Below, piece after piece: positions 2,629 through 20,523 of a DNA stretch of 64,000 bases. This DNA is from an uncultured Nitrososphaerales archaeon (GTDB lineage Archaea > Thermoproteota > Nitrososphaeria > Nitrososphaerales > Gagatemarchaeaceae): contig OY970160.1 in the NCBI GenBank assembly GCA_963706445.1, forward strand, positions 768,001 to 832,000, in the 5' to 3' direction. Within the stretch, counting starts at the first letter, position 1. Every line of letters starts with the position of its first letter. The notes beneath the pieces were generated by a model, which worked only from the letters and a program-made list of their open reading frames with translations, was not told the DNA's origin and made no database searches. The position numbers were made by a program, and so were the translations under genes.

Positions 2629-4014
2629 CTAGGTCGACTTGCAACTACACACACCCATGACATGGGCTTTCCATTGTCTCTTTGCGCTGTCTTCGCTTAT
2701 CCTGTTCTCCAGGCTTATTTCTCTGAAGGACTTCCCCTTCGGTTCCTCAGCTGAACCGTTGACGCCCATATGTTCGGCAACAATGACACGATGCATTTGT
2801 TCATCAATGGCTGGGGCCCGTCCACCGTATTTCCTAGCTTCGTCTCTCCTCCGAACCATTGCAATGGCAGTTTTCTTCTCGTCGAAGGAAACTCTGATAC
2901 CTAGCCTTTCGATGATCGAGGTGCCTCTCTTGATGTGCCATGGGGGCAATAGGAACCACCCGATAGCGAATTGTCCTCTTTCTCCAACCATGTTGAACAA
3001 ATGAGACGGGAGCTGCCTCATGAGCTCCGGAGTCTCGTATTTCATCGTCCAGTTAAGATTGTCAGGGATTTCCATCTGGCCCATTGTCTTCATGAAGAGA
3101 AAAGTTGTTAGTTCGCGGACGTCCTTTGAAACACCCACACTCCGTTGAGAATCAGTGATGACGGCATAGCCGCAATGAAAGAGGGTATTGTTGAAGGTGA
3201 TGAAATCTTCCGCCGAGTCTTTGGCGCCTCGAGGTCGCCCGGACTTCATTCTCCCAGCTATCCATTCTTGGGCTTCCCGAATGAGGATCACGTGAGTGCG
3301 GTTCCAACTGTCCCTCTTTGAGAAACACTCCGTCAGTTTTTCGAGAGCTGCGTAGTAAAGTTCCTCATTGGCGAAGAAACTCTTAGTCATGATGAAAATC
3401 CGCCCGTCTGGGGCTGTCTTCGGTTCCAGGTCTTCAATGCTCATCGTGTGATAATTGCAATCGAGAGTGGTTTCTGCCCCGCGAACCAGAATTACGCGGT
3501 CAGAATAGGGGGAATCGAGCCAAGCGAGCGACTCGTTGTCATTGGCAGCATACAGGTCGTAGACCGAAGACCCATTCTGCAAGTATTTGATGGCGATCGT
3601 CTCCCCAAGTCCAGATTTCCCAGATCGGCGGACCCCGATAATCCGAAAAGTTGCGACGTCCTTGAAGTCGGGCAGGTAAGGTGACCCCACGAATGATTTC
3701 AGTATCTGAATGGGAAACTGAATGTCTGGGGTCCAAGGTTTGAATGGAGTCCAAGATTCGACGGGACCTCGCACCGCTTCCGTTATCACACCCTCGGACT
3801 CGCAATTGCTGCACCCTTCGTCTGGCCAGAATCGTCTGTCATGGCGCTTACATACTCTGCTGTACATACGTCGGTAGGGCATTTCGACGCGATGGCGGGC
3901 CTTCGGATCTCTCACACCGACGTTCACAAGTTGCGAAATCGTCTTCTTGTCAGGCACGTATGCGTAGTCCTTCTCTCTTCTCGTCAGTGCCCTTGGGTCG
4001 TTAGGCAAGTCCAT
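2629..4014 (-). CDS. FtsK/HerA-superfamily (packaging/Zot-like) P-loop ATPase with N-terminal Cys/His cluster and C-terminal HTH-like segment
   Basis: Walker A GVRRSGKS, variant Walker B VILIREA, downstream GYAVITDSQ...DVRE sensor/Arg pattern. CKRH...CSNC near the N-terminus; KSFREISLENRISEDSAKRQW near the C-terminus. Confidence 0.65.
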   Translation of the reverse strand: MDLPNDPRALTRREKDYAYVPDKKTISQLVNVGVRDPKARHRVEMPYRRMYSRVCKRHDRRFWPDEGCSNCESEGVITEAVRGPVESWTPFKPWTPDIQFPIQILKSFVGSPYLPDFKDVATFRIIGVRRSGKSGLGETIAIKYLQNGSSVYDLYAANDNESLAWLDSPYSDRVILVRGAETTLDCNYHTMSIEDLEPKTAPDGRIFIMTKSFFANEELYYAALEKLTECFSKRDSWNRTHVILIREAQEWIAGRMKSGRPRGAKDSAEDFITFNNTLFHCGYAVITDSQRSVGVSKDVRELTTFLFMKTMGQMEIPDNLNWTMKYETPELMRQLPSHLFNMVGERGQFAIGWFLLPPWHIKRGTSIIERLGIRVSFDEKKTAIAMVRRRDEARKYGGRAPAIDEQMHRVIVAEHMGVNGSAEEPKGKSFREISLENRISEDSAKRQWKAHVMGVCSCKST

Positions 4015-4323
4015 GCCCCATTATTCGGAGAGGTTACATAAAAACACTATGATTTTCATAAAGTCATCAGCGATTAGCGATAATTTAGCACTTAACGCTA
4101 ATGGAAATCAAATATCTAGTATATTCGGTTCGACAGCAATATGAACGAATGGGGTGTAACTCACATACTAGTAGTACGGGCACCCCTCTATACGCACGAC
4201 GACTGGCGAAACTAGGTCCTTTGCATCACGTTCAGTTTTTCTTGTTGCGGTATCGCGTTCGATCAGAATGGTACGAAGAAGGCTGACAGGAGAGAACACT
4301 ATTCTCCGGGCCTGATTCGCTAT

Positions 4324-4440
4324 TCATTTCTTCTCGTGGCGTCGCATATGTTCAGTCACCATGCTGTCCAACTGCTTCTGGTACATACTGAAGAATGGCC
4401 GACCGCAAACCGGACACGAAGCAGAAAGGACCTTTGGCAT
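4324..4440 (-). CDS. 38-aa C2H2-type zinc-finger mini-protein
   Basis: Manual translation MPKVLSASCPVCGRPFFSMYQKQLDSMVTEHMRRHEKK (CxxC...HxxxH). Below the ORF track cutoff. Confidence 0.65.
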   Translation of the reverse strand: MPKVLSASCPVCGRPFFSMYQKQLDSMVTEHMRRHEKK

Positions 4441-4546
4441 TGGTGGCACCTTTATGGGCAACGATACCCATGACGGTATCCCCTCCTAATAAGCATGTCT
4501 TTGGGTAGTGTTTTTATACCCCCATATGGATATGGGTAGGGATAGC

Positions 4547-4867
4547 ATGTCAGAAAGCGACGAACCTAATTTCACTGTCGTCAGCATCAGTTATGCGGGG
4601 GATGGTGACCGGTACATGCTAGAGTTGTTCGACTCCAAGGTAATCGACGCGGCCAAGAAGGGGAGGAAGAGCAGGCGAGAACTCTGGGACATCCGGGAGC
4701 ACAATCTAGAACGCGAAGGAATGTTCCCGTTCATCCTCTCGACCCAGAGGGTGTTCCTCCCAGTCACTAACGGGGAGTTCATGAGGCTAGCCCCGTTCGT
4801 TGGCATGAGGGTGAGGATCGCCATCTCTGTTGTGGGGTCCCAATCGAGAACCCTGATTGCTGATTAG
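4547..4867 (+). CDS. Hypothetical protein (small beta-rich archaeal type)
   Basis: ATG about 35 nt after TTTTTATA; beta-strand pattern ending PFVGMRVRIAISV. Confidence 0.55.
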   Translation: MSESDEPNFTVVSISYAGDGDRYMLELFDSKVIDAAKKGRKSRRELWDIREHNLEREGMFPFILSTQRVFLPVTNGEFMRLAPFVGMRVRIAISVVGSQSRTLIAD

Positions 4868-5090
4868 CAAACTTAGAGAAACCGTATGTGTGTGCTTACA
4901 TTCGCCCAGAGGAAATTCTTCTCTCCTCCGCCGCTTGATTCCGGGTCTGCGATTTTGGTCAGGTGAAACCATCCCATCAGTCTGGGGCCTGGCCACTCTT
5001 TTGCCAATGAGAGCTCGTCCCTCGTCACATGCACATTGTGCTAAAGGCGTTATCATGAAGGCAGGTCCCCCTCCAAGAAGCAGCCGTCGC

Positions 5091-5118
5091 CGTCCGTAAT
5101 TCTTTAATATTACGGACG
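5091..5118. promoter_or_regulatory. Perfect 10-bp inverted repeat around the TATA box of the TA operon (likely autoregulatory operator)
   Basis: CGTCCGTAAT-tctttaat-ATTACGGACG, ending 14 nt before the antitoxin ATG. Confidence 0.7.
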
Positions 5119-5131
5119 TTATCGCTCACCA

Positions 5132-5365
5132 ATGGAGAAAACCGAGGTGCAGCGGAGATTCACAACCACTATCCCCAAAAAGGTAAGAGAGAAGCTTGGG
5201 TTGAAGGAGGGGACTGGCCTATTCTGGGAAGTTGAGGAGGGTCGGATGGTCGTCTATCCCGCCACCTACTCCTCACTCGACGGCGTCCTGGAGGGGAAGG
5301 TCGAATACACGCGCAGAGTGAAGGAACAAGTCGAGGAAAGATTCCTTGGGCTTGAGAAGGGTTGA
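5132..5365 (+). CDS. vapB: AbrB/MazE/SpoVT-family antitoxin
   Basis: TTTIPKKVREKLGLKEG...WEVEEGRMVV AbrB signature; overlaps the PIN gene. Confidence 0.85.
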   Translation: MEKTEVQRRFTTTIPKKVREKLGLKEGTGLFWEVEEGRMVVYPATYSSLDGVLEGKVEYTRRVKEQVEERFLGLEKG

Positions 5366-9085: not shown

Positions 9086-10906
9086 ATGGGAGAAAAGGGT
9101 AGCAAAGACTCGTCCTTAGGCCAGCGGGGCACCAACGGTCCCGACGAGGGCAAGCTCTCGCAACCCCTCAAATTCACTTCATCGCGAACAAAGCAACTCT
9201 TCGACTACTTGGTAGAATCATTTGTCGAGGACTACATGCGCAAGAAGTACGCCCAGGAGAGATCCGGATGGCGGAGTCTTGTTGACGCGGCCCGGAAGAT
9301 CGGGCTGCCTACCTCTGCGATGTACGGGAAGGGTGGCGGGCAGAGCCCTTTTGTCAGCGAGCTGATTCGACGAGGTATTGTCGAGCTGCGCGTATTTCCC
9401 GGTGAGCGCGGGCGCGGCGGGGGAATATCGAGGCTCAGAATCGCCTACGAAAAGAAACCCGTCCAGGGCTTGGTTGACAGGCTCGTCTGGGGCGACCTGC
9501 GAGGTGAGGAGCAAGTGCAACACTTGAACAGGCTGAAAGTGGCGGTGCTGCCGTTCACCAATATGAGCCCTGACCCTCGAGACGGATACTTCGCGGACGG
9601 GATGACAGAGGAGCTGATCTCAGCGGTCTCCAAGGTACGAGGGTTGAGCGTGATCTCACGAATCTCTGTCATGCACTACAAGGACCAGTCGATAGGGGCC
9701 CGGGAGATCGGTAGAGAACTGAAGACCGGCACGCTGCTCGAAGGCAGCGTCAGGAAGGCAGGCGATCGGGTCCGGGTCGCTGTCCAAATGATCAACGCCG
9801 AAACCGACGAGCATCTCTGGGCAGAGAACTACGACAGGACACTGGAGGACGTCTTCTCCATTCAAAGTGACATAGCCCAGAACGTAGCATCCATGCTCAA
9901 GGTCACCCTCCTTAATAGCGACCGGGAGAGGCTCGAGAAGGCCCCGACAAAAGACCCGGAAGCCCACGCCCTGTACCTGAAGGGGAGATCCCTTGGGATA
10001 CGTGGAACCGAGGCAGATCTGAAGAAAGCGGCCAAGTTCTATCGGAAGGCTATCCTGAAGGATCCCAAGTATGCCCTCGCGTACGCTTGGCTCTCCGATG
10101 CCACGTCTACATTGGGATTCTACGAGATGACGCCGCCCGTGAAGTCGTTCAAGAGAGCCGAAGAACTTGCCCGACGAGCGCTCGAAATAGACCCATCGCT
10201 CCCCGAAGCTCACATGTCATTGGGTGAAGTCCTTTTCAATCAATGGGATTTCAAAGGCTCAGAGGAAGAATTGAACCGTGCCTTGGAGCTGGACCCAAAC
10301 TCCGCGACGGTCCTGAGCGACAAAGCGAATCTAATGCTCTTCAGGGGGCGTCTCGACGAAGCCGCGACGCTCGCAAGGAGGGCGCTGGAACTTGACCCCC
10401 TATCACCGTCCATCCTCAATAATGCTGCAACAATTCTCCTCTATTCTGGCAAACTGGACGACGCCATAACCCTCTTCAAGAAGGTTCTCGAAATTGATCC
10501 CGAAGCGGCCTCTGCGCTGTGCAACCTCGGCGTGGCGTACGTCCAGAAGGGGATGTTAGACGAAGGCATAGATTCAATTCGTGATGCGATAAGGATGTCA
10601 AAGGGCTCCAGCCCGGGTCAGTGGAGCGACCTGGGACACGCGCTGAGCAAAGCTGGCAGGTTCGCAGAACTCAGGGAGCTTCTGATCGAAACCCTCGAAT
10701 GGCACGCGAAGAACCATCGTGGCGCCATCGCGCTCGTGTCACTCTACGCAAACCTTGGCGACAAGGACAAGGCCTTCGAGTGGCTGGAGAAGGCCATCGA
10801 AGAGCATTCAGGCTATCTCAATGGGATCCTTGCCGACTTCGCCTTCGAGGACCTCCGTTCGGACCCCCGGATGGAAGCAATCATAGCCCGTCTGGGCTTA
10901 AGATGA
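9086..10906 (+). CDS. Putative wHTH + TolB-like + TPR-repeat signalling protein
   Basis: VAVLPFTNMSPDP..YFADGMTEELI module shared with the cyclase at 25752; multiple TPRs (ALELDP); N-terminal helix/wing-like region. Confidence 0.75.
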   Translation: MGEKGSKDSSLGQRGTNGPDEGKLSQPLKFTSSRTKQLFDYLVESFVEDYMRKKYAQERSGWRSLVDAARKIGLPTSAMYGKGGGQSPFVSELIRRGIVELRVFPGERGRGGGISRLRIAYEKKPVQGLVDRLVWGDLRGEEQVQHLNRLKVAVLPFTNMSPDPRDGYFADGMTEELISAVSKVRGLSVISRISVMHYKDQSIGAREIGRELKTGTLLEGSVRKAGDRVRVAVQMINAETDEHLWAENYDRTLEDVFSIQSDIAQNVASMLKVTLLNSDRERLEKAPTKDPEAHALYLKGRSLGIRGTEADLKKAAKFYRKAILKDPKYALAYAWLSDATSTLGFYEMTPPVKSFKRAEELARRALEIDPSLPEAHMSLGEVLFNQWDFKGSEEELNRALELDPNSATVLSDKANLMLFRGRLDEAATLARRALELDPLSPSILNNAATILLYSGKLDDAITLFKKVLEIDPEAASALCNLGVAYVQKGMLDEGIDSIRDAIRMSKGSSPGQWSDLGHALSKAGRFAELRELLIETLEWHAKNHRGAIALVSLYANLGDKDKAFEWLEKAIEEHSGYLNGILADFAFEDLRSDPRMEAIIARLGLR

Positions 10907-12376: not shown

Positions 12377-12514
12377 TCGGGCTCCTACCTAGAATGTCTA
12401 GGCCCGGCCAGGGCGCACAACAGGGCGGTCTTCTCGGCTCCGACAATGGCTTGTTTCAGCCTAAGATCAACGGAGTAACCATCACGATCAACGGATCTGC
12501 TACCTAAACTGCAA
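12377..12514 (+). repeat. 40-bp att-like site, copy D, plus 98-bp extension shared with copy E
   Basis: TCGGGCTCCTACCTAGAATGTCTAGGCCCGGCCAGGGCGC; 12417-12514 matches 19489-19586 without gaps (about 9 mismatches by eye). Confidence 0.9.
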
Positions 12515-12565: not shown

Positions 12566-12973
12566 GTGGGCTCAACCCTACTCCTTCAGCCCATGATGTA
12601 CTTCGTTCCTTTCCGACTAGCCGCTCCCCAACGGGGATCAGAAGGAGACTCAGGTCAGACACCGATTCCAGCCGTTCTTGATCCTTCGTTCAAACGCATA
12701 ATGGTCTACGTCTTCGTTGCTAGCCGAGGGGGACAAAACAGGGCACGAATCGCGGAGATGCTTCGAGGAGAGCCGTCGAACCTCAACAGGATCTCAGAGG
12801 GCCTCAAGCTCGACTACAAGACGGTCCGTCATCACATCGGGGTTCTAGAGGAGAACGGAGTCATCATCTCGAATGCAAAGGGGGCTTACGGTGCGGTTTA
12901 TTTCCTGACCCCTTATTTTGAAAAATACTTCGAAATCGTCAAGGAAATGTGGGTTCGATTTGGGCATAGTTAG
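12566..12973 (+). CDS. Winged-helix (ArsR-like) transcriptional regulator
   Basis: SRGGQNRARI...NLNRISEGLKLDYKTVRHHIGVLEENGVI...YGAVYF. The true start may be further downstream. Confidence 0.85.
   Translation: MGSTLLLQPMMYFVPFRLAAPQRGSEGDSGQTPIPAVLDPSFKRIMVYVFVASRGGQNRARIAEMLRGEPSNLNRISEGLKLDYKTVRHHIGVLEENGVIISNAKGAYGAVYFLTPYFEKYFEIVKEMWVRFGHS
12945..12968 (+). promoter_or_regulatory. Tandem operator motif 1
   Basis: AATGTGGGTTCGATTTGGGCATA, ending 33 nt before ATG 13001 and followed by a TATA-like TTAGATAT. Confidence 0.7.
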
Positions 12974-13000: not shown

Positions 13001-13312
13001 ATGGCGTTCGACATCTTCTGGATGAACGTCGCTGCAGGTTTCGCGTTCGTCAACATCGCCTTCGTGGCTTTGTTGATAGGCCTCTACTTCAGGAGCTGGC
13101 AGAAGGTGCGTTCCTCGCTGAGCCTCGCACTGATTCTCTTCGCTGTATTCTTCCTGGTTCAGAATGGGGTAATCGTAGTCTTCTGGTACGTCCTCTACGG
13201 TCTTGGCCCTCCCTTCCAGTCGGTCGTGGTTTCAGCGGCCCCCTACCTTGCTGCAATCAACGCCCTTGAGACGCTTGCGCTCGCGAACCTAGTTAGGATC
13301 ACTTGGAGCTAG
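13001..13312 (+). CDS. Three-TM membrane protein, probable partner of the wHTH regulator
   Basis: Three hydrophobic helices, FFLVQN and NALE motifs; directly follows the regulator. Confidence 0.7.
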   Translation: MAFDIFWMNVAAGFAFVNIAFVALLIGLYFRSWQKVRSSLSLALILFAVFFLVQNGVIVVFWYVLYGLGPPFQSVVVSAAPYLAAINALETLALANLVRITWS

Positions 13313-13363: not shown

Positions 13364-13387
13364 CGATTTGGGTCGGATTTGGGCATA
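13364..13387 (+). promoter_or_regulatory. Tandem operator motif 2
   Basis: CGATTTGGGTCGGATTTGGGCATA, ending 33 nt before ATG 13420. Confidence 0.75.
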
Positions 13388-13419: not shown

Positions 13420-13599
13420 ATGACCGGATATTCAGCCGACCTGAAGCAAGTATGTGGCTGTGCCTGGGCAGCTACCGGTGCCACTTCGGACGAAGTGACA
13501 AACAAAGTGGCGTCGCATGCGATGCAGGCTCACGGGATGGATGAGGTCCCAGCCGAAGTAGCCCAGAAGCTTCAGGCAGCCATGAGACCGACGATGTAA
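13420..13599 (+). CDS. DUF1059-like small metal-binding protein (59 aa)
   Basis: Manual translation MTGYSADLKQVCGCAWAATGATSDEVTNKVASHAMQAHGMDEVPAEVAQKLQAAMRPTM (C..T..E...HA...HG pattern). Missed by the ORF track. Confidence 0.75.
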   Translation: MTGYSADLKQVCGCAWAATGATSDEVTNKVASHAMQAHGMDEVPAEVAQKLQAAMRPTM

Positions 13600-13781
13600 G
13601 AACTCACTGGAGGCGCAAGCCTCCTCTTTCTTTTTCTGATCAGACGATCTTGCAATCCATCAAAAGGAAGCTTTGTCGAAGGAGAACAAGCCGTAGGTGA
13701 TTTTAGGCGAATTGGAGGGCACCCTTGAAGACAACAGCTGCGCCGAAACAAGAAGGTCGAGGCAGAGGGCGATTCATTTGC

Positions 13782-13805
13782 CGATTTGGGCATAATTCTG
13801 GCATA
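13782..13805 (+). promoter_or_regulatory. Tandem operator motif 3
   Basis: CGATTTGGGCATAATTCTGGCATA, ending 35 nt before ATG 13840. Confidence 0.75.
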
Positions 13806-13839
13806 GCCTTTTCTACTTTTTGCACTCGATGCTCTTCCG

Positions 13840-14163
13840 ATGAATGACATAACAGATGAAAGTCGGCGCAAGTTTCTGAAGGTTGTGGCGCTTGGAGGGG
13901 TAGCTGTCGCTGCAACACCGCTCTTGATGAATGCCAAGATCCTGGGGTTGGGGTCAGCTTCCGTAAGCCCCGCTTTGGGGACAGGAACGGCATACGCACC
14001 TGTTTCAACTAAAACGGGTGGCGCCGGAGGGGACGATTCCACTTTGGTAGTCGTAGTGAAGAACGGCCAGGTCACAGGCTACAGGGGTGCGCAGAAGGTC
14101 GCCATGAATGACCTTGCGCTCGGATCCCAACTTCACACCTCCTTCGAGTCATACCTGGAGTGA
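13840..14163 (+). CDS. Small protein with twin-arginine (Tat) signal peptide
   Basis: SRRKFLK followed by a hydrophobic h-region. Confidence 0.8.
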   Translation: MNDITDESRRKFLKVVALGGVAVAATPLLMNAKILGLGSASVSPALGTGTAYAPVSTKTGGAGGDDSTLVVVVKNGQVTGYRGAQKVAMNDLALGSQLHTSFESYLE

Positions 14164-15627
14164 TTGGAAATGACATCCCACAGAGAGGCGCCGTCGATCT
14201 CTAAGGACCCGGTTGCGGACAATACAGATCTGTATGCGTTCGTCAGTCCCGACAAGCCGAACACAGTGACAATCCTGGCCAACTACATACCGCTTGAAGA
14301 GCCAGCTGGAGGCCCGAATTTCAATTCGTTCGGGGACGACGTACTCTACGAGATCAAGATCGACAATGACGCCGACGCCAAACCAGACATCACCTATCAG
14401 TTCACATTCAGGACTACGGTCGCAAACAAGAACACCTTCCTTTACAACACCGGTCCAATAGCAACGCTCGATTCGCCGAACTGGAACGTCCGTCAGTTCT
14501 ACAAGGTGACCGAAGTCAAGGGAGATGGCATCGCAAAGGTGCTTGGTGACAACCTTCCCTGCCCGCCGGTCAACATAGGTCCCCGGTCAACGCCCAGCTA
14601 TGCGAGCTTGGCCGACGCCGCGATCAAGGCCCTTTCCGACGGATCTTCGGTGTTCGCCGGCGCACGCGCGGACGGGTTCTACGTAGACCTTGGGTCGATC
14701 TTTGACCTGGGGACACTAAGGCCGCTCGAGTCCTACCACCTGATTCCAGTCCCGCCGAACGCTGCGGGGGTGAACGGACTTAAGGGATACAACTGCCACA
14801 GTATCGCTCTTCAGGTGCCCATCTCCAAACTGACGTCGGACGGTTCGGTACCAACCGACCCTAGCAAGCAAGAGGCTGTCCTTGGTTTCTGGGCTACAGC
14901 TAGTCGGCGAGCGGTCAGGGTTCCAGACGGAGCCTCTTCGAGCCAGGCATTCGAAGAAGCGGGGCCCTTCGTTCAGGTGTCCAGACTCGGAAACCCTCTG
15001 ATCAACGAGGTCGTAATTCCGGTCGGTACGAAGGACCAGTGGAACACTGTACAACCCTCGATGGACTCGGCCTTCGCCCCCTACTATCTAGTCCCCGAGC
15101 TCTCCAAGCTTCTGCCGGTACTGTACCCGGGCGTCTTCCCCAATCTGGCCGGCCTCTCAGGCTCAGCCGCCCCCAGAAACGACCTCGCAGCCATTCTTCT
15201 GACGGGTATCCCGAGCGGGATAATCACCGGGTTCCAGAACTTCACTGGTGCGACTCAGGCAGACATGCTCAGGCTGAACGTCGCCATCCCTCCAAACACA
15301 ACCGCGGGGGCCAACCCGCCTTTCAACAGCTCGAGCAGGCAGGGGATCCTTGGCGGAGACCTGGCGGGCTATCCCAACGGCCGACGGGTGTTCGACAACG
15401 TCGTGGCCATAGAGCTCCGAGCCATAGCGGGTCTCACATACCCCCTTGTCATGCCCAGCTACACCCCTGACGCGGCCGCAGGAATTTTGGCCGACACCGA
15501 CACCCCAGATCCAGGTGTCACAAAGTTCTCTGACGCCCAGAACGATGTCACCAACGCGCCATACCTGGGAAGCTTTCCATACCTCGCGACTCCCTACCAG
15601 GGTTACGAGCATGAGCACGACCCCTAG
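14164..15627 (+). CDS. DUF4331-family protein without its own signal peptide
   Basis: Hallmark TSHREAP..DP.ADNTDLYAF, QVSRLGNPLINE, DMLRLN, GYPNGRR..D; His-rich C-terminus YEHEHDP. Confidence 0.85.
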   Translation: MEMTSHREAPSISKDPVADNTDLYAFVSPDKPNTVTILANYIPLEEPAGGPNFNSFGDDVLYEIKIDNDADAKPDITYQFTFRTTVANKNTFLYNTGPIATLDSPNWNVRQFYKVTEVKGDGIAKVLGDNLPCPPVNIGPRSTPSYASLADAAIKALSDGSSVFAGARADGFYVDLGSIFDLGTLRPLESYHLIPVPPNAAGVNGLKGYNCHSIALQVPISKLTSDGSVPTDPSKQEAVLGFWATASRRAVRVPDGASSSQAFEEAGPFVQVSRLGNPLINEVVIPVGTKDQWNTVQPSMDSAFAPYYLVPELSKLLPVLYPGVFPNLAGLSGSAAPRNDLAAILLTGIPSGIITGFQNFTGATQADMLRLNVAIPPNTTAGANPPFNSSSRQGILGGDLAGYPNGRRVFDNVVAIELRAIAGLTYPLVMPSYTPDAAAGILADTDTPDPGVTKFSDAQNDVTNAPYLGSFPYLATPYQGYEHEHDP

Positions 15628-15657
15628 GCCGGTTCCGGACTTCGTAGGTTTCCATCC

Positions 15658-16695
15658 ATGAAGCTGGGACTGCCAATGGGGGACAGGATGGCGGTCCTAG
15701 GAATCTACGCAGCCATCGGGGCAGCCACGGCAGCCAGCCTGATGATAGCAGGGATCGTCGGGCGCTCGTTCGCCTTGATTCTGGGATTGAGCATGACGAC
15801 CTACATCCTCGGAGTCAGGCACGGGCTCGATGCGGACCATATTGCAGCCATAGACAACGTCACCAGGAGGCTGATGAACGGGGGGAAGCGCCCCATGACG
15901 GTGGGGACCTGGTTCTCGCTCGGGCACTCTACCATAGTCTTCGCTCTCACAGCTGGGATCACGATCGGGGCGCGCCAGGTCCTAGCCGCCGAGCCCGAGA
16001 TAGCCGGAATGGGATCTATCCTGGGTACGGGCATATCGGCCGCCTTTCTCTGGCTCATCGGGACAGTCAACCTCCTTTCTGCCATCCAAATCTACCGAAC
16101 GCTGAGGGCTGTACACAGCGGGAAGAATCAGGGCGACTCCGCTGATATTGCCATCCAGGGCGGGGGCTTCTTCAGCAGGAGGATGGGCCGGCTCTTCGAC
16201 CTGGTTCGGAAGCCGTGGCAGATATACCCCATAGGCATCCTGTTTGGGCTCGGGTTCGACACCGCGACCGAGGTCGCGCTAGTCTCGCTCAGTGTGCTCG
16301 CCGCGGTGGGGGGCTCGATCCCGGTCTGGACCGTGCTCATATTGCCAGCTACCTTCAGCTGCGGGATGGTGCTGGTCGATACTACCGACGGTGTGATGAT
16401 GACTTTTGCCTACGAATGGGCGTTTCTCCAACCTATGCGCAAGATATTCTACAATCTGACCTTGACCGTAGGGTCAATCGTCGTAGCCTTCCTGATAGGG
16501 GGGGTCGAGGTGCTCCAGGTCCTCTCACAGGGGCTGGGCCTTAGGGGCTTTTTCTGGACCTGGATGGGGGGAATCGACTTTGAAACCCTGGGGCTGTTCG
16601 TAGTTGCGGCGTTCGGGGCCACATGGGTCGTATCGTTGTCCTTGTACCGGTTCAGGCGCTACGGAAGGACCCTGGCGTTGCCCGCCGGCCCGTGA
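15658..16695 (+). CDS. HoxN/HupN/NixA (NiCoT) nickel/cobalt permease
   Basis: RHGLDADHIAAIDN, FSLGHSTIV and LFGLGFDTATE NiCoT signatures. Confidence 0.92.
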   Translation: MKLGLPMGDRMAVLGIYAAIGAATAASLMIAGIVGRSFALILGLSMTTYILGVRHGLDADHIAAIDNVTRRLMNGGKRPMTVGTWFSLGHSTIVFALTAGITIGARQVLAAEPEIAGMGSILGTGISAAFLWLIGTVNLLSAIQIYRTLRAVHSGKNQGDSADIAIQGGGFFSRRMGRLFDLVRKPWQIYPIGILFGLGFDTATEVALVSLSVLAAVGGSIPVWTVLILPATFSCGMVLVDTTDGVMMTFAYEWAFLQPMRKIFYNLTLTVGSIVVAFLIGGVEVLQVLSQGLGLRGFFWTWMGGIDFETLGLFVVAAFGATWVVSLSLYRFRRYGRTLALPAGP

Positions 16696-16717
16696 AGATC
16701 CGTTTTCGCCGATGGCC

Positions 16718-17140
16718 CTAGCTGTTCGCGTGAAATATTCCTGAGCTTACTTCCTCGGTGACCTTGAGCCCTCCAGGTGGCACATTGAAGGGGCAGATGA
16801 TCCCCCGGCTGTATTTGACCGCTCCCTCGACCTCGATGACTGGGAACTCATCCTCGGTTGCCCGGGCGGCATGGGACCGGACTTCCTGTTCCGTCTGACA
16901 CAGCCTATCCAAGTTCTTGAGCAGGTCCTCCCCTTTTTCCGTGTAAATCCGACGTATCTTGGCCTCTCCCTCAAGCTGTTTTGACACCTCAGAATCGTAC
17001 AGAAAGACCCTGTCTCCCTCTTCGATCAGATCCCAATCGTCGCTCTTCTCCCCTACGTAAAGAACCCTATGATGAACGATGTTGTGCACCGCTTCGCGGC
17101 CCATGGGAATTATTATCCCTGTCACTCCGTTTTTCCCCAT
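16718..17140 (-). CDS. DUF365/PUA-ASCH-like protein
   Basis: GDRVFLYDS...LEGEAKI pattern of PUA-like folds. Confidence 0.55.
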   Translation of the reverse strand: MGKNGVTGIIIPMGREAVHNIVHHRVLYVGEKSDDWDLIEEGDRVFLYDSEVSKQLEGEAKIRRIYTEKGEDLLKNLDRLCQTEQEVRSHAARATEDEFPVIEVEGAVKYSRGIICPFNVPPGGLKVTEEVSSGIFHANS

Positions 17141-17198
17141 TTGTTGCTCGCCATCAATGGACGACTTTTGGCACTTTCGGAAGGGGTCCGTGAGAATT

Positions 17199-17492
17199 CT
17201 AGGAGAATTTCTTTACGCGCTGCACGATTTCGGCCGAAATCTGATCTGAGGTCTTTCCTTCGGTGCTTATCCCAAGCTGCTTCGCTGTATTGCGAAGCGC
17301 GTCAGGGGAACCAACTTCCGCCTCCGGGTGACCTGCCACAGGCGCTGCGGTTTCCTTCCCACCCATCTCGAATTCGTTCTTCGCCCTCCCTAAACTCCTT
17401 GCCAGTTGAGGGATCTTTGTAGGGCCCCACATCAAGACAACCACAGCGATTGCCCCTATGATCAACAGCTGAACCGGGTCTGCGAATACCAT
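17199..17492 (-). CDS. tatA: Twin-arginine translocase TatA/E subunit
   Basis: TM + WGPTKIPQLARSLGRAKNEF; archaeal tail AKQLGISTEGKT. Confidence 0.9.
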   Translation of the reverse strand: MVFADPVQLLIIGAIAVVVLMWGPTKIPQLARSLGRAKNEFEMGGKETAAPVAGHPEAEVGSPDALRNTAKQLGISTEGKTSDQISAEIVQRVKKFS

Positions 17493-17525: not shown

Positions 17526-17549
17526 TATGCCAGATTTTGGCCCAAATCC
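17526..17549 (-). promoter_or_regulatory. Tandem operator motif 4
   Basis: Reverse complement GGATTTGGGCCAAAATCTGGCATA, ending 34 nt before the tatA ATG. Confidence 0.75.
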
Positions 17550-17849: not shown

Positions 17850-19376
17850 CTATCGCATATCGGGGGGCAGCTCTCCTGCCTCCAAGTCATCCTCTGTTAT
17901 TCCTCGGCACTTGGCATATGCCGCCCTATAGCCACGGAGTAGGTCACGGCTTTCTCCGAGGACGTATTCCAAAGTATCCAATCGATTCGAGTCAATCAGC
18001 GAGCTGTTCTTGTATCGTCCAGTGTTCTTATCGTAGCCCATGGCTTCGTTTGCTGCATCCCAATCCCGTTTTTGCTTGAGGTACACATCTAGGGCTTTCA
18101 GATAGGCTGCTTCCGCTTCGGCGCACGGATCCGGTGCGGCCGGATTCGGAGGCGGGGGTTCGAGGGGGGGAGCAGTCTTTGGAGCCGCCGCCGGAGGGGG
18201 GATAGGCACCGCGGGAGTAGGGGGTGCAGCTGGGGTCGGAATGCCTGGCGGCTCTTCTGGCGGTGCAGTCGCCGCTATCTCAGCCTCCAGCTTCTCCATG
18301 AACGTGTCTTCTTCCAACGGCGGTTGACCAGGAAGATACTCCGGCTCCAACCCTAGGTCATCTCCTGGGGGCTTTCCTGACAGCGGAGGTGGACCAGGAG
18401 GCTTGGGCGGGGGGTTAGCCGCTCCCTCCTTCTCGTCGTCCTCATCCCCTCCAGAGAAATACCAGTACAGGAATATTGCAGCGCCGATACCCACAAACGC
18501 AACCAAGAGCTCCCAGGCCAAGGCACCATTAGTGGTCGTGCCGCTGCTTGCTGTTGAACTACTGGAGCTCGAAGATGGGCTCGTCGTCGTATTACTGCTA
18601 GGAGAAGTGGTCGATACTACAGATGTCGTCGTGTTCGTAGCTTGACTGACCGTGATATTGGCGATGGGAGAAGTGACTGTCATAGGCAGACTGGCGTTGT
18701 CGGTCACCTGGAGCTCGAAATGCCAGATCCCTGCAGTGGAAAGATTGCCTGTTGGAACTGTCGGTGGGGGTGTAGCTGTGCAAGCGAAGGGGTTCCCCAT
18801 GACCACAAAGGCGTTGAGTTCGGGAGCCCACACAAGCCACTGGCATGCGTAGGGTGGTGTCCCTCCGCTGAACGGCGTCGTAGTGGTGAGGGTGACTGAC
18901 TGGCCGGCGTTGACCGTAGGCTGAGAGACGGAGATCACGGGAGCCACGAGGGCGGGGTTGACGATCGCCGTGGCGTTGGCCAAGGCGGTACCCAGAGAGC
19001 CCGCGTTCAACAGCGCGCAGAATGGAACAGTAGCTGGGGTTTGAGATGGCGTCAGCGGGGGGGTTGTGAAATTGTCTGACGGTCCAGACTGGAGTGGTGG
19101 TGTGGGGCACCCCGGCGTCCCGAAGCCGGAGGACCAGGTTATCGTATAGGGGAATCCTGATGGCACTCCGCTTACTTGGGCTCTGAAATGAGCGGACCAC
19201 CCGTAGTCGACCCTTTGATTGGGGACTGTGAGTGTGACACCACCCTGGGCGTGCGCTACCGGGGTGGCGACTGTGAAGACAAGGACCAGCAACGAACTGC
19301 CGAGAAGCAAACTAGAAACAAATGGCCCAAATCGGACGTCCGTTGGCCGCACGTTCACAATGCGACAGGACTGCAT
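17850..19376 (-). CDS. Single-pass surface protein: Ig-like domains, S/T linker, TM, Pro-rich tail (paralog of 35549)
   Basis: Signal peptide AHAQG, VNPALVAP..FSGGT..QWL repeat-like domain, TM, Pro-rich region, DPCA...C helical end. Confidence 0.75.
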   Translation of the reverse strand: MQSCRIVNVRPTDVRFGPFVSSLLLGSSLLVLVFTVATPVAHAQGGVTLTVPNQRVDYGWSAHFRAQVSGVPSGFPYTITWSSGFGTPGCPTPPLQSGPSDNFTTPPLTPSQTPATVPFCALLNAGSLGTALANATAIVNPALVAPVISVSQPTVNAGQSVTLTTTTPFSGGTPPYACQWLVWAPELNAFVVMGNPFACTATPPPTVPTGNLSTAGIWHFELQVTDNASLPMTVTSPIANITVSQATNTTTSVVSTTSPSSNTTTSPSSSSSSSTASSGTTTNGALAWELLVAFVGIGAAIFLYWYFSGGDEDDEKEGAANPPPKPPGPPPLSGKPPGDDLGLEPEYLPGQPPLEEDTFMEKLEAEIAATAPPEEPPGIPTPAAPPTPAVPIPPPAAAPKTAPPLEPPPPNPAAPDPCAEAEAAYLKALDVYLKQKRDWDAANEAMGYDKNTGRYKNSSLIDSNRLDTLEYVLGESRDLLRGYRAAYAKCRGITEDDLEAGELPPDMR

Positions 19377-19448: not shown

Positions 19449-19586
19449 GGGGGCGCCTACCTGAACTGACTATTCCCGGCCAGGGTGCACAACATGGCGG
19501 TCTCCTCGGCTCCGACAATGGCTTGTTTCAGCTTAAGAACAACGGACTAACCATCACGTTCAAGGAATCTGCTACCGAAACTGCAA
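19449..19586 (+). repeat. 40-bp att-like site, copy E, plus 98-bp extension shared with copy D
   Basis: GGGGGCGCCTACCTGAACTGACTATTCCCGGCCAGGGTGC, then sequence matching 12417-12514. Confidence 0.9.
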
Positions 19587-19608: not shown

Positions 19609-20523
19609 CTATATTCTACTTGCAATTTCATTGAAAACTGCAGCCAAATCGGTACCCGCCGTTGTAACCGCCGCGATTATGACTACTGCAATAAGTCCCG
19701 CTACGAGGCCATACTCGATTTGTGTTACTAGTGGCGAAACAGTCGCAGACGCACTGTCGAGGAGGAAGTTATCGAAGCCGTTGCCACTCGCTGCATTCCC
19801 GATGAGTATGTTGCTGGAAGTGCTGATGAGGAAGAAGCCAACCCCGTTGTTGCTGTTCGCTCTGTTCCCGATGAGCGTGTTGCTGGACGAATAACCGAGG
19901 ACAAAGCCATCAAAGCTGTTGCTGTTCGCTGTGTTCCCGATGAGCGTGTTGCTGGAAGTGCTCACGAAGAGGAAGCCAGCCACGTTGTTGTCGCTCGCTG
20001 TGTTCCCGATTAGTGTGTTGCTGGAGGAGAGCACGAGGAAGAAGCCAACCTGGCCGTTACCATTCGCTGTGTTCCTGATGAGTACGCTGCTGGGAGAGCT
20101 GACGATGATGAAGCCGCCCCCATTACCATTCGCTGTATTCCCGATGAGTGTGTTGGAAGAGCTGCCGAGGCCAAAGCCGTCATAGAATCCCGTAACATTG
20201 CAGTTCATGACCGTGACTCTTGCTATCCCGGTAATCTCACTGATCCCTATGCTGTCAGCAGCGCCGGAGCCGCCTATGGTCTGCCCAGCGCAGTTGAGGG
20301 TTATACCATTAGCGCCTATGATGAGGCCGTTCCCTGGGCAGGGACCAATGCTGGCGTTCAGTGTAGTGCTGGTCGTAATTGTGGAGCCACACATTGGCGC
20401 CGGCGCAGCGTGGACAGGGACAGGCAAGAAAGCAAGGGTTGAACCAAGAATCATCGCGAGAAGCAAAATCGCATAGCGGGCCTTCCGAGTGCCCTTACCC
20501 ATTAGGGTTGCCGTGGCCTGCAC
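19609..20523 (-). CDS. Secreted right-handed beta-helix (NosD/CASH-like) protein with a C-terminal Flp-pilin-like segment
   Basis: 22-aa repeats SSSNTLIGNTANxNxxxGFxL; ends IEYGLVAGLIAVVIIAAVTTAGTDLAAVFNEIASRI. Confidence 0.75.
   Translation of the reverse strand: MQATATLMGKGTRKARYAILLLAMILGSTLAFLPVPVHAAPAPMCGSTITTSTTLNASIGPCPGNGLIIGANGITLNCAGQTIGGSGAADSIGISEITGIARVTVMNCNVTGFYDGFGLGSSSNTLIGNTANGNGGGFIIVSSPSSVLIRNTANGNGQVGFFLVLSSSNTLIGNTASDNNVAGFLFVSTSSNTLIGNTANSNSFDGFVLGYSSSNTLIGNRANSNNGVGFFLISTSSNILIGNAASGNGFDNFLLDSASATVSPLVTQIEYGLVAGLIAVVIIAAVTTAGTDLAAVFNEIASRI

Follow-up and report, generated by a model that had tools for sequence, protein, structure and literature searches.

How can a protein without a signal peptide come to work outside the cell, and why should a nickel/cobalt permease be encoded beside it? 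These questions are raised by a gene cluster in a stretch of 64,000 nucleotides (nt) from an uncultured Nitrososphaerales archaeon (contig OY970160.1, positions 768,001 to 832,000), referred to here as the window. In this cluster the gene for a signal-less protein of the DUF4331 family sits directly behind that for a 107-residue twin-arginine protein and is followed by the permease gene, as an initial annotation of the window had proposed and as the translations and model matches bear out. The preferred reading, to which we assign a probability of roughly 60%, is that the 107-residue protein is a dedicated escort carrying a twin-arginine translocation (Tat) signal and that DUF4331 is its cargo, in a MelC1/MelC2-style export of an extracytoplasmic metal-handling protein. 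The genes named in the initial annotation (DUF1059, the twin-arginine protein, DUF4331, the permease and TatA) are all recovered at their places by Pfam or NCBIfam matches:

13420..13599, plus strand: DUF1059 mini-protein with two Cys and two His (Pfam, E = 9e-13)
13840..14163, plus strand: Tat-signal escort of 107 amino acids (aa), with an SRRKFLK signal that matches TIGR01409, a linker of low complexity and a conserved domain of about 40 aa at the C-terminus
14170..15627, plus strand: signal-less DUF4331, starting M-T-S-H-R-E-A-P, with an invariant His4 and the tail G-Y-E-H-E-H-D-P
15658..16695, plus strand: NiCoT-type (HoxN/NixA-like) nickel/cobalt permease (Pfam NicO, PF03824)
17199..17492, minus strand: TatA, a second paralogue (Pfam TatA/E, PF02416; 31.2 bits, cut-off 21)

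The TIGR01409 match of the escort (21.7 bits, cut-off 16.7) spans residues 8-27 and includes the S-R-R-K-F-L-K motif. The DUF4331 model (PF14224) is matched from position 2 to 421 of 421, with an E-value of 9e-138 and 460.5 bits (cut-off 27). Translation of DUF4331 is taken to start at ATG 14170 and not at TTG 14164, because all 120 of the 120 nearest homologues begin M/V/L-[S/T]-S-H(-R-E-A-P); 76 of these 120 end in a G[YF]xHxHD tail. NiCoT permeases are characterized by an H-x4-D-H signature in the second transmembrane helix and by a G-F-D-T-A-T-E motif. The permease translation contains R-H-G-L-D-A-D-H-I-A-A-I-D-N and L-G-F-D-T-A-T-E-V, and scores 277.4 bits against NicO (E = 2e-82, cut-off 27.7), while its scores against TIGR00802 (311.4 bits, cut-off 333) and NicT (337.8 bits, cut-off 450) are just below the cut-offs.

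Distribution of the escort and of DUF4331 signal peptides

A direct search with the 107-residue protein returned one close homologue, which also stands in front of a signal-less DUF4331. Four contigs with a more distant DUF4331 each contain an unannotated gene of 94-101 aa immediately upstream, whose product combines an RR motif with a hydrophobic stretch, a linker of low complexity and, at the C-terminus, a similar block of about 40 residues. The pair was surveyed in the 80 best DUF4331 loci, drawn from contigs of one genome per species, and in 86 loci in all, which are spread over Bathyarchaeia and other Thermoproteota, Thermoplasmata, Chloroflexota, Actinomycetota, Dormibacterota, an Aminicenantes genome and two Pseudomonadota genomes. 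Archaea, Actinomycetota, Chloroflexota and Dormibacterota account for most of the signal-less class. The DUF4331 N-terminus was located by a motif scan in 84 of the 86 loci (locus L046 is cut at the contig end, and L057 was missed by the motif search), and all of these start directly at [S/T]-S-H. A profile of the escort finds a match directly upstream, on the same strand, in 85 of the 86 loci, covering at least seven archaeal and bacterial phyla. In the remaining locus, L046, the sequence starts within the DUF4331 gene, so that every locus with upstream DNA, 85 of 85, has an escort. Because the pair recurs in all informative loci, the arrangement lies far beyond chance.

The twin-arginine motif is present in 76 of 81 escorts, and TIGR01409 is matched by 27 of 48. 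In a comparison of the escort profile with the sequences in the PDB, only Tat signal peptides were matched (NosZ, NapA, AioB, EfeB, PaoA and MelC1), and the escort matched no Pfam or NCBIfam family. Membership of the family of MelC1, the apotyrosinase chaperone, was considered and rejected: model NF047833 matches the escorts with E-values of 0.0038-0.11 and at best about 12 bits, far below the cut-off of 120, and in the signal-peptide region only. Many escorts have no obvious A-x-A site. In the escort of locus L021 (L021:5695-5988) the Tat signal is followed at once by a lipobox-like L-A-A-C, a sign that the escort of that lineage may be a Tat-exported lipoprotein anchor.

DUF4331 proteins with a signal peptide of their own provide the control. 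The family is present in 66 of 151 Actinomycetes genomes, and in the best 30 Actinomycetes loci every DUF4331 has its own leader, which ends just before S-S-H-R-E-A-P; the escort was not found in any of these 30 loci (without L100 and L106, which come from genomes flagged as unpublished, the counts are 28/28 with their own leader and 0/28 with an escort). As the 1.5-kilobase (kb) flanks of these first loci are too short for neighbours, larger regions were used, and in 20 further signal-bearing loci with 8-kb flanks, all from published genomes, the escort was again not found. Of 150 proteins representing clusters at 50% identity, 87 carry a leader and 28 lack a signal. When the motif was relaxed slightly, 96 representatives showed a leader ahead of the His motif, and every one of them has Ala, Gly, Ser or Thr at position -1 and a small residue at position -3; signal peptidase is therefore predicted to cut exactly before S-S-H.

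In every other branch of the family DUF4331 is thus a protein predicted to work outside the cell, and the escort occurs exactly where the signal peptide is missing (85/85 versus 0/50). This complementary distribution is the strongest argument for piggy-back export, which the initial annotation had put forward for the window and which is strongly supported by the comparison of gene neighbourhoods that it had named as a check, where the escort stands directly upstream in 85 of 85 informative loci and in 0 of the first 30 signal-peptide loci. In Bacteroidota, DUF4331 proteins (clusters of the Atlas) are about 700 aa long and contain fibronectin type III domains and C-terminal sorting domains of the type IX secretion system (T9SS), and would therefore be displayed at the surface.

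Mature N-terminus, Tat components and the metal link

The window DUF4331 has the block S-H-R-E-A-P ... D-x-T-D-x-Y at its mature N-terminus, and H4, P8, D20 and Y22 are among the five residues that are invariant in 100 diverse DUF4331 members. Since the residue following Met1 is Thr or Ser, removal of Met1 is expected, and the mature N-terminus would then be X-Ser-His in both classes, arising here from loss of the initiator Met and elsewhere from cleavage by signal peptidase. In the signal-bearing class, predicted cleavage leaves Ser at position 1 in 91 of 96 sequences and at position 2 in 96 of 96, followed by His. An X-Ser-His start, with His at mature position 3 and a residue other than Pro at position 2, has a predicted ATCUN-like arrangement (amino-terminal Cu(II)- and Ni(II)-binding motif), in which the free amine and the His can bind Ni(II) or Cu(II). 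One 612-aa DUF4331 (P0127) is joined directly to a canonical Tat signal (S-R-R-R-F-L), without the escort domain; its predicted mature N-terminus is S-N-H, so that the X-X-His rule holds in a Tat-fused form too.

A model of DUF4331 based on an alignment of 100 sequences has a predicted local distance difference test score (pLDDT) of 91.7 and a predicted template-modelling score (pTM) of 0.93; a first model, from 14 sequences, was poor (pLDDT 48). The better model consists of a large β-sandwich (about residues 18-273) followed by a mainly helical region. Foldseek against the PDB returned nothing at E ≤ 0.001, and a search of the Atlas returned DUF4331 clusters only. In the wide VIA-align comparison the best Z was 7.4 (Sas6), with values of about 5 for CBM9/DOMON-like sandwiches including the gamma subunit of ethylbenzene dehydrogenase; these Z values lie in the range common to β-sandwiches, and DUF4331 was therefore assigned to no family. 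With no clear match among solved structures, the fold offers no clue to function. Co-folding of DUF4331 (A1) with the C-terminal 50 residues of the escort (A2) gave a score of 0.06 against a mark of 0.32, to which no weight is given either way.

The pair is frequently accompanied by Tat components. A tatC gene adjoins it in 14 loci and a tatA gene in about 16, in varied arrangements and in several phyla. A second tatC is present elsewhere in five of five bacterial genomes tested that have a pair-adjacent tatC, and three genomes without an adjacent tatC have a single tatC each. In the window genome a tatA-tatC pair lies about 174 kb away, and the TatA of the module is a second copy; its score against TIGR01411 (33.4 bits) is below the cut-off of 53.9. 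Two Bathyarchaeia genomes (G042 and G043) have the sole tatC found, together with tatA, immediately upstream of an ArsR-orf103-escort-DUF4331 cluster. Examples of tatC and tatA beside the pair in Bathyarchaeia are:

L020:2963-4374, tatC and tatA
L013:3178-4510, tatC and tatA

A link to nickel or cobalt, also proposed in the initial annotation, is upheld by neighbouring genes in several phyla, with support that is less tight than that for the Tat carrier. A NiCoT gene lies within 6 kb of the pair in 9 of the 86 loci (three archaeal, one from Chloroflexia, four of Thermoleophilia type and one alphaproteobacterial), placed downstream or divergently upstream; in L007, L008, L032, L057, L070 and L088 its position is the same as in the window. 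For a gene that occurs about once per genome, 9 of 86 is a large excess, the loci being not all independent. Among Actinomycetes DUF4331 proteins with a signal peptide, a conserved DUF4331-TPR-NicO-family operon is present in 18 of 20 loci (L133-L152), and again at L129:5001-9598. The NicO-family product of this operon is 530 aa long, carries an additional domain at its N-terminus and an extended His-rich loop, and is matched best by the RcnA model of nickel/cobalt efflux proteins (142 bits, below the cut-off). An ABC (ATP-binding cassette) ATPase cluster seen in 12 loci was judged to reflect generic similarity and set aside.

In bacteria a third gene joins the pair. It lies directly downstream of the signal-less DUF4331 in 68 of the 86 loci, all of them bacterial:

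L126:6528-6839, third gene
L127:6518-6829, third gene (with 66 other loci)

Its product is a signal-less protein of about 100 aa with a predicted immunoglobulin-like sandwich fold and the invariant residues G18, G22, E36, H50 and R56, often with a His-rich N-terminus (for instance repeated H-D or H-Q). It matched no Pfam or NCBIfam family and bears the automatic name 'phospholipase family protein' in the Atlas; comparison of the DUF4331 and third-component profiles with PDB sequences revealed no solved relative.

The absence of a urease or hydrogenase near the permease, noted at the outset, extends to the whole genome, where the search for urease gave one partial match of 24 bits and that for [NiFe] hydrogenase a match to positions 1-70 of 508 of the Pfam model only. 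The latter is, as we tentatively assume, a complex I subunit. With no convincing urease or [NiFe] hydrogenase in the genome, the permease is therefore left without an obvious client among those two enzymes.

The remaining features of the module and its surroundings are the following:

12379..12514: left copy of a 136-nt direct repeat (family D3) that brackets the cassette, 88% identical to 19451-19586
12566..12973, plus strand: ArsR/SmtB-like winged-helix regulator (HTH_20, HTH_5 and ArsR/SmtB models, all below cut-offs)
12945..12968, plus strand: tandem operator copy 1, upstream of orf103
13001..13312, plus strand: orf103, a hydrophobic membrane protein of 103 aa, conserved beside the regulator in archaeal loci
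13364..13387, plus strand: tandem operator copy 2, upstream of DUF1059
13783..13805, plus strand: tandem operator copy 3, upstream of the Tat-signal gene
16718..17140, minus strand: 140-aa protein of unassigned family, with a weak DUF365 match only
17526..17548, minus strand: tandem operator copy 4, upstream of TatA, with two mismatches in its first half
17850..19376, minus strand: Ser/Thr/Pro-rich surface protein of 508 aa
19451..19586: right copy of the 136-nt direct repeat

Four genes, orf103, DUF1059, the escort gene and TatA, are each preceded at a fixed distance by a tandem element, GATTTGGG-N3-AATTYGGGCATA, which also precedes the escort gene of the metagenomic orthologue L006; three exact 12-mers occur within 850 base pairs (bp). 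This shared element is the sequence basis for the co-regulation of TatA that had been proposed. The Cys/His mini-protein had been counted as part of the same module, and this holds only in part: DUF1059 shares the operator and yet falls outside the conserved module, the window being alone among the 86 loci in having it there (one distant case, in L128, has a DUF1059 gene 5 kb from the pair). The product of 12566-12973 appears from its matches to be a winged-helix protein of the general ArsR/SmtB type (22.8 bits with HTH_20, cut-off 27; 20.2 with HTH_5, cut-off 22; 23.7 with NF033788, cut-off 55), and as the adjacent regulator gene it is the obvious candidate for a repressor or regulator of the module. 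Homologues of this gene and of orf103 accompany the pair, upstream, in eight other archaeal loci, and the orf103 homologue in L009 carries PF26119 (DUF8036). The 140-aa protein travels with NicO in the two closest archaeal loci, L007 and L008. Pairs of extracytoplasmic function (ECF) sigma and anti-sigma factors adjoin the pair in 18 loci.

The two 136-nt repeats enclose a cassette of 7.07 kb that holds the whole module and the 508-aa surface protein, and none of 24 other genomes of the genus yielded a DUF4331; horizontal acquisition of the module is therefore probable. In L007, the closest archaeal locus of that make-up, IS110- and DDE-type transposase genes (2790-5315 and 9141-10340) flank an escort-DUF4331-NicO-orf140 core, which fits with mobility of the module. 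Just outside the right repeat, on the minus strand at 19609-20523, a protein of 304 aa made of 23-residue (69-nt) repeats (families D1 and D2) is encoded, which is probably a β-helix.

Proposed export route and competing explanations

In the proposed escort-cargo route, the escort and DUF4331 would be made from adjacent, often translationally coupled genes and would assemble in the cytoplasm. The folded complex would cross the membrane via TatC and the TatA of the module, in the way that the tyrosinase MelC2 is carried by MelC1, and this hitch-hiking would keep the N-terminus of DUF4331 free. Outside the cell, DUF4331 may handle a Ni/Co-type metal together with NicO-family transporters.

Several points weigh against this reading. 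The observations comprise the gene pair with its distribution complementary to that of signal peptides, the Tat signals and additional Tat genes, the links to transporters and the operator that the promoters share; contact within the pair, export, metal binding and the identity of the metal we infer. The profile behind the 85 escort detections was built from 66 of the surveyed loci, so that about 19 detections are independent. A few escorts have no twin arginine, with R-L in three and K-R in one (L006). Removal of Met1 is assumed from the small second residue, a single His is invariant in DUF4331, and the modelled fold has no close solved relative that would point to a metal site. The NiCoT gene is present in only about 10% of the signal-less loci, and ArsR/SmtB proteins usually switch genes on under metal excess, which fits poorly with an importer. 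Finally, RR occurs in only 9 of the 87 leaders of signal-bearing relatives, so that most are Sec-like; DUF4331 can therefore be expected to reach its folded, mature form outside the cell, which makes cytoplasmic metal loading a weaker explanation for use of the Tat system.

Two options for the escort would be compatible with the proposed route. Metal might be loaded before export from NiCoT import, with the His-rich protein as a chaperone in bacteria, an option favoured because of this cytoplasmic partner and the importer. Alternatively, the escort might tether DUF4331 to the membrane, which is favoured because the leaders of the relatives are mostly of Sec type. A more encompassing view, which is possible and which we advance only tentatively, holds that the DUF4331 proteins form a large family, so far unrecognised, that handles Ni/Co (or Cu) outside the cytoplasm with an X-Ser-His metal site and NicO-superfamily partners in bacteria and archaea. 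One branch of it would have exchanged the signal peptide for Tat escorts, often with its own TatA/TatC and an often His-rich cytoplasmic partner, and would be assembled or metal-loaded inside and exported folded.

The explanation that competes best, though on balance we consider it somewhat unlikely, makes the escort a permanent membrane anchor or subunit and not the carrier of a pre-loaded metalloprotein, with DUF4331 taking up its metal outside as a metal-capture protein. If DUF4331 needs a free N-terminus, it could not be anchored by its own signal or by a lipid, and monoderm bacteria and archaea might use a Tat-inserted anchor beside a transporter. The mostly Sec-type leaders of the relatives, which indicate that metal can be acquired outside, speak for this explanation, as do the concentration of the signal-less class in archaea, Actinomycetota, Chloroflexota and Dormibacterota, the lipobox-like L-A-A-C of L021, the many escorts lacking an obvious A-x-A site, and the NicO-family transporters adjoining both DUF4331 classes. 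However, a permanent anchor accounts neither for the cytoplasmic protein, often His-rich at its N-terminus, encoded behind the pair in 68 of 86 loci nor for the presence in the operon of an importer that serves the cytoplasm.

A second alternative, which we regard as unlikely, concerns the metal and the role: the metal could be copper, or the protein could serve to detoxify or buffer metal and not to supply nickel. X-X-His sites have a higher affinity for Cu(II) than for Ni(II). The ATCUN-like N-terminus, the RcnA efflux type of the transporter beside signal-bearing relatives (142 bits), the ArsR-type and ECF sigma regulators typical of metal stress responses, and a cupredoxin gene near the pair in L009 would all agree with such a role. 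Against it stand the uptake-type NiCoT beside the pair in the window and in eight other loci, and the lack of recurrent copper pumps or chaperones near the pair in the surveyed loci.

It is quite improbable that the signal-less DUF4331 simply stays inside the cell, with the Tat protein as an independent exported or membrane partner such as a sensor or chaperone. DUF4331 and its His-rich downstream partner both lack a signal, and NiCoT imports metal into the cytoplasm, as would be expected for such an arrangement. Nevertheless, every other DUF4331 branch appears to be secreted, the mature N-terminus is kept identical to that of the secreted forms, the escort occurs exactly where the signal peptide is missing, and extra tatA and tatC genes adjoin the pair.

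That the two genes are really one, joined by read-through of an in-frame TGA, by selenocysteine, or by a sequencing error or pseudogene lesion to give a Tat-signal DUF4331 precursor, has next to no probability and, judged by the related loci, has been disproved for the family as a whole. The TGA at 14161-14163 that ends the 107-aa gene is indeed in frame with DUF4331, and exactly two codons separate it from the DUF4331 ATG in the window (14161-14169) and in the closest relative (L006:5867-5875), a spacing that is not kept across the family. In contrast, the stop codons in related loci are TAG, TGA, TAG and TAA, the genes are in different frames in L008 and L009, and the gap ranges from an overlap to 127 nt; because frame and stop codon differ in this way, the escort and DUF4331 are taken to be two genes, and read-through or selenocysteine at the TGA was rejected. 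Moreover, in all homologues [S/T]-S-H comes directly after the start codon, and a fusion would bury this conserved N-terminus behind about 100 residues without a cleavage site. Longer proteins joining escort and DUF4331 were sought and not found, a negative that carries little weight; one apparent fusion (P0200) is a miscalled frame. Occasional read-through may give rise to a fused form at the window and L006 loci.

Comparison with known systems

Within the body of literature searched, no paper mentions DUF4331, a family of 5456 clusters at 50% identity (matches at E ≤ 0.001). The survey makes it a testable system, with an obligate escort that replaces the signal peptide, a processed N-terminus resembling a Cu/Ni site, dedicated Tat components and a family-wide link to nickel/cobalt transporters. 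If the proposed reading is true, a widespread Tat hitch-hiker pair would be added, including one in archaea, from which we know of few such pairs. It would also bring a new class of accessory protein for NicO-type transporters, which, to our knowledge, are thought to work alone, and would explain a nickel permease in a genome without urease or hydrogenase.

The closest parallel in gene arrangement is provided by MelC1/MelC2 of Streptomyces, in which a signal-less tyrosinase is secreted by hitch-hiking on a helper with a Tat signal that also delivers the metal (PMC2758597). Both systems are bicistronic, with a small Tat-signal protein encoded upstream and a signal-less metalloprotein (putatively so for DUF4331) downstream. 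Unlike in MelC1/MelC2, where the cargo MelC2 is a type-3 copper protein, the cargo here is DUF4331, and the sequence relation of the escort to MelC1 is limited to the signal peptide. In addition, the folded part of the escort comprises only about 40 aa, and the escort pair spans archaea and at least six bacterial phyla, often with its own tatA/tatC.

In the flavin adenine dinucleotide (FAD)-dependent glucose dehydrogenase of Burkholderia cepacia, the gamma (hitch-hiker) subunit supplies the Tat signal, aids folding of the signal-less alpha subunit and remains bound after export (PMC6719666). This system shares with the DUF4331 pair a small subunit known mainly as the Tat-signal carrier of a signal-less catalytic subunit. 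The families are, however, unrelated, as gamma is a five-helix protein of 121 residues and its cargo a flavin/iron-sulfur enzyme.

In [NiFe] hydrogenases such as HybO/HybC, nickel is imported and inserted in the cytoplasm with the help of His-rich chaperones, and the signal-less nickel subunit leaves the cell together with a partner bearing the Tat signal; permeases of the hoxN type occur in hydrogenase loci. A study by Rodrigue et al. (1999) is listed in PMC13673990. The escort differs from the hydrogenase partner in lacking an iron-sulfur domain, DUF4331 has no hydrogenase motifs, and no hydrogenase genes were found in the window genome.

Dedicated Tat translocases are known as well. TatAd/TatCd of Bacillus subtilis is a dedicated translocase for PhoD. 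Campylobacter jejuni has two TatA paralogues (PMC4148689). As in such cases, extra tatA or tatC genes stand beside, or would serve, a particular cargo, whereas dedication is here deduced from adjacency, copy number and the shared operator.

A nickel site at a protein N-terminus, made up of Met1, His2 and His67, is used for nickel uptake by NikM (PMC3945884). The likeness of DUF4331 to ATCUN proteins and NikM lies in a free N-terminal amine and a nearby His that could form a square-planar Ni(II)/Cu(II) site; the DUF4331 site differs in being predicted from sequence, and the conserved S-S-H-R-E-A-P is longer than an ATCUN motif, so that other roles are possible.

For the transporters, the nearest comparison is RcnA/RcnB of Escherichia coli, where a nickel-cobalt efflux transporter of the NicO family is encoded beside an exported accessory protein. 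A NicO-family gene next to the gene of an exported protein is common to both systems, and the RcnA-like model matches the neighbour of the signal-bearing DUF4331. RcnB, in contrast, is small and unrelated to DUF4331, and the DUF4331-linked transporters may act in either direction. The mechanism proposed for the DUF4331 pair belongs to a known kind and involves two families not described before, with a third in bacteria, and its breadth is unusual.

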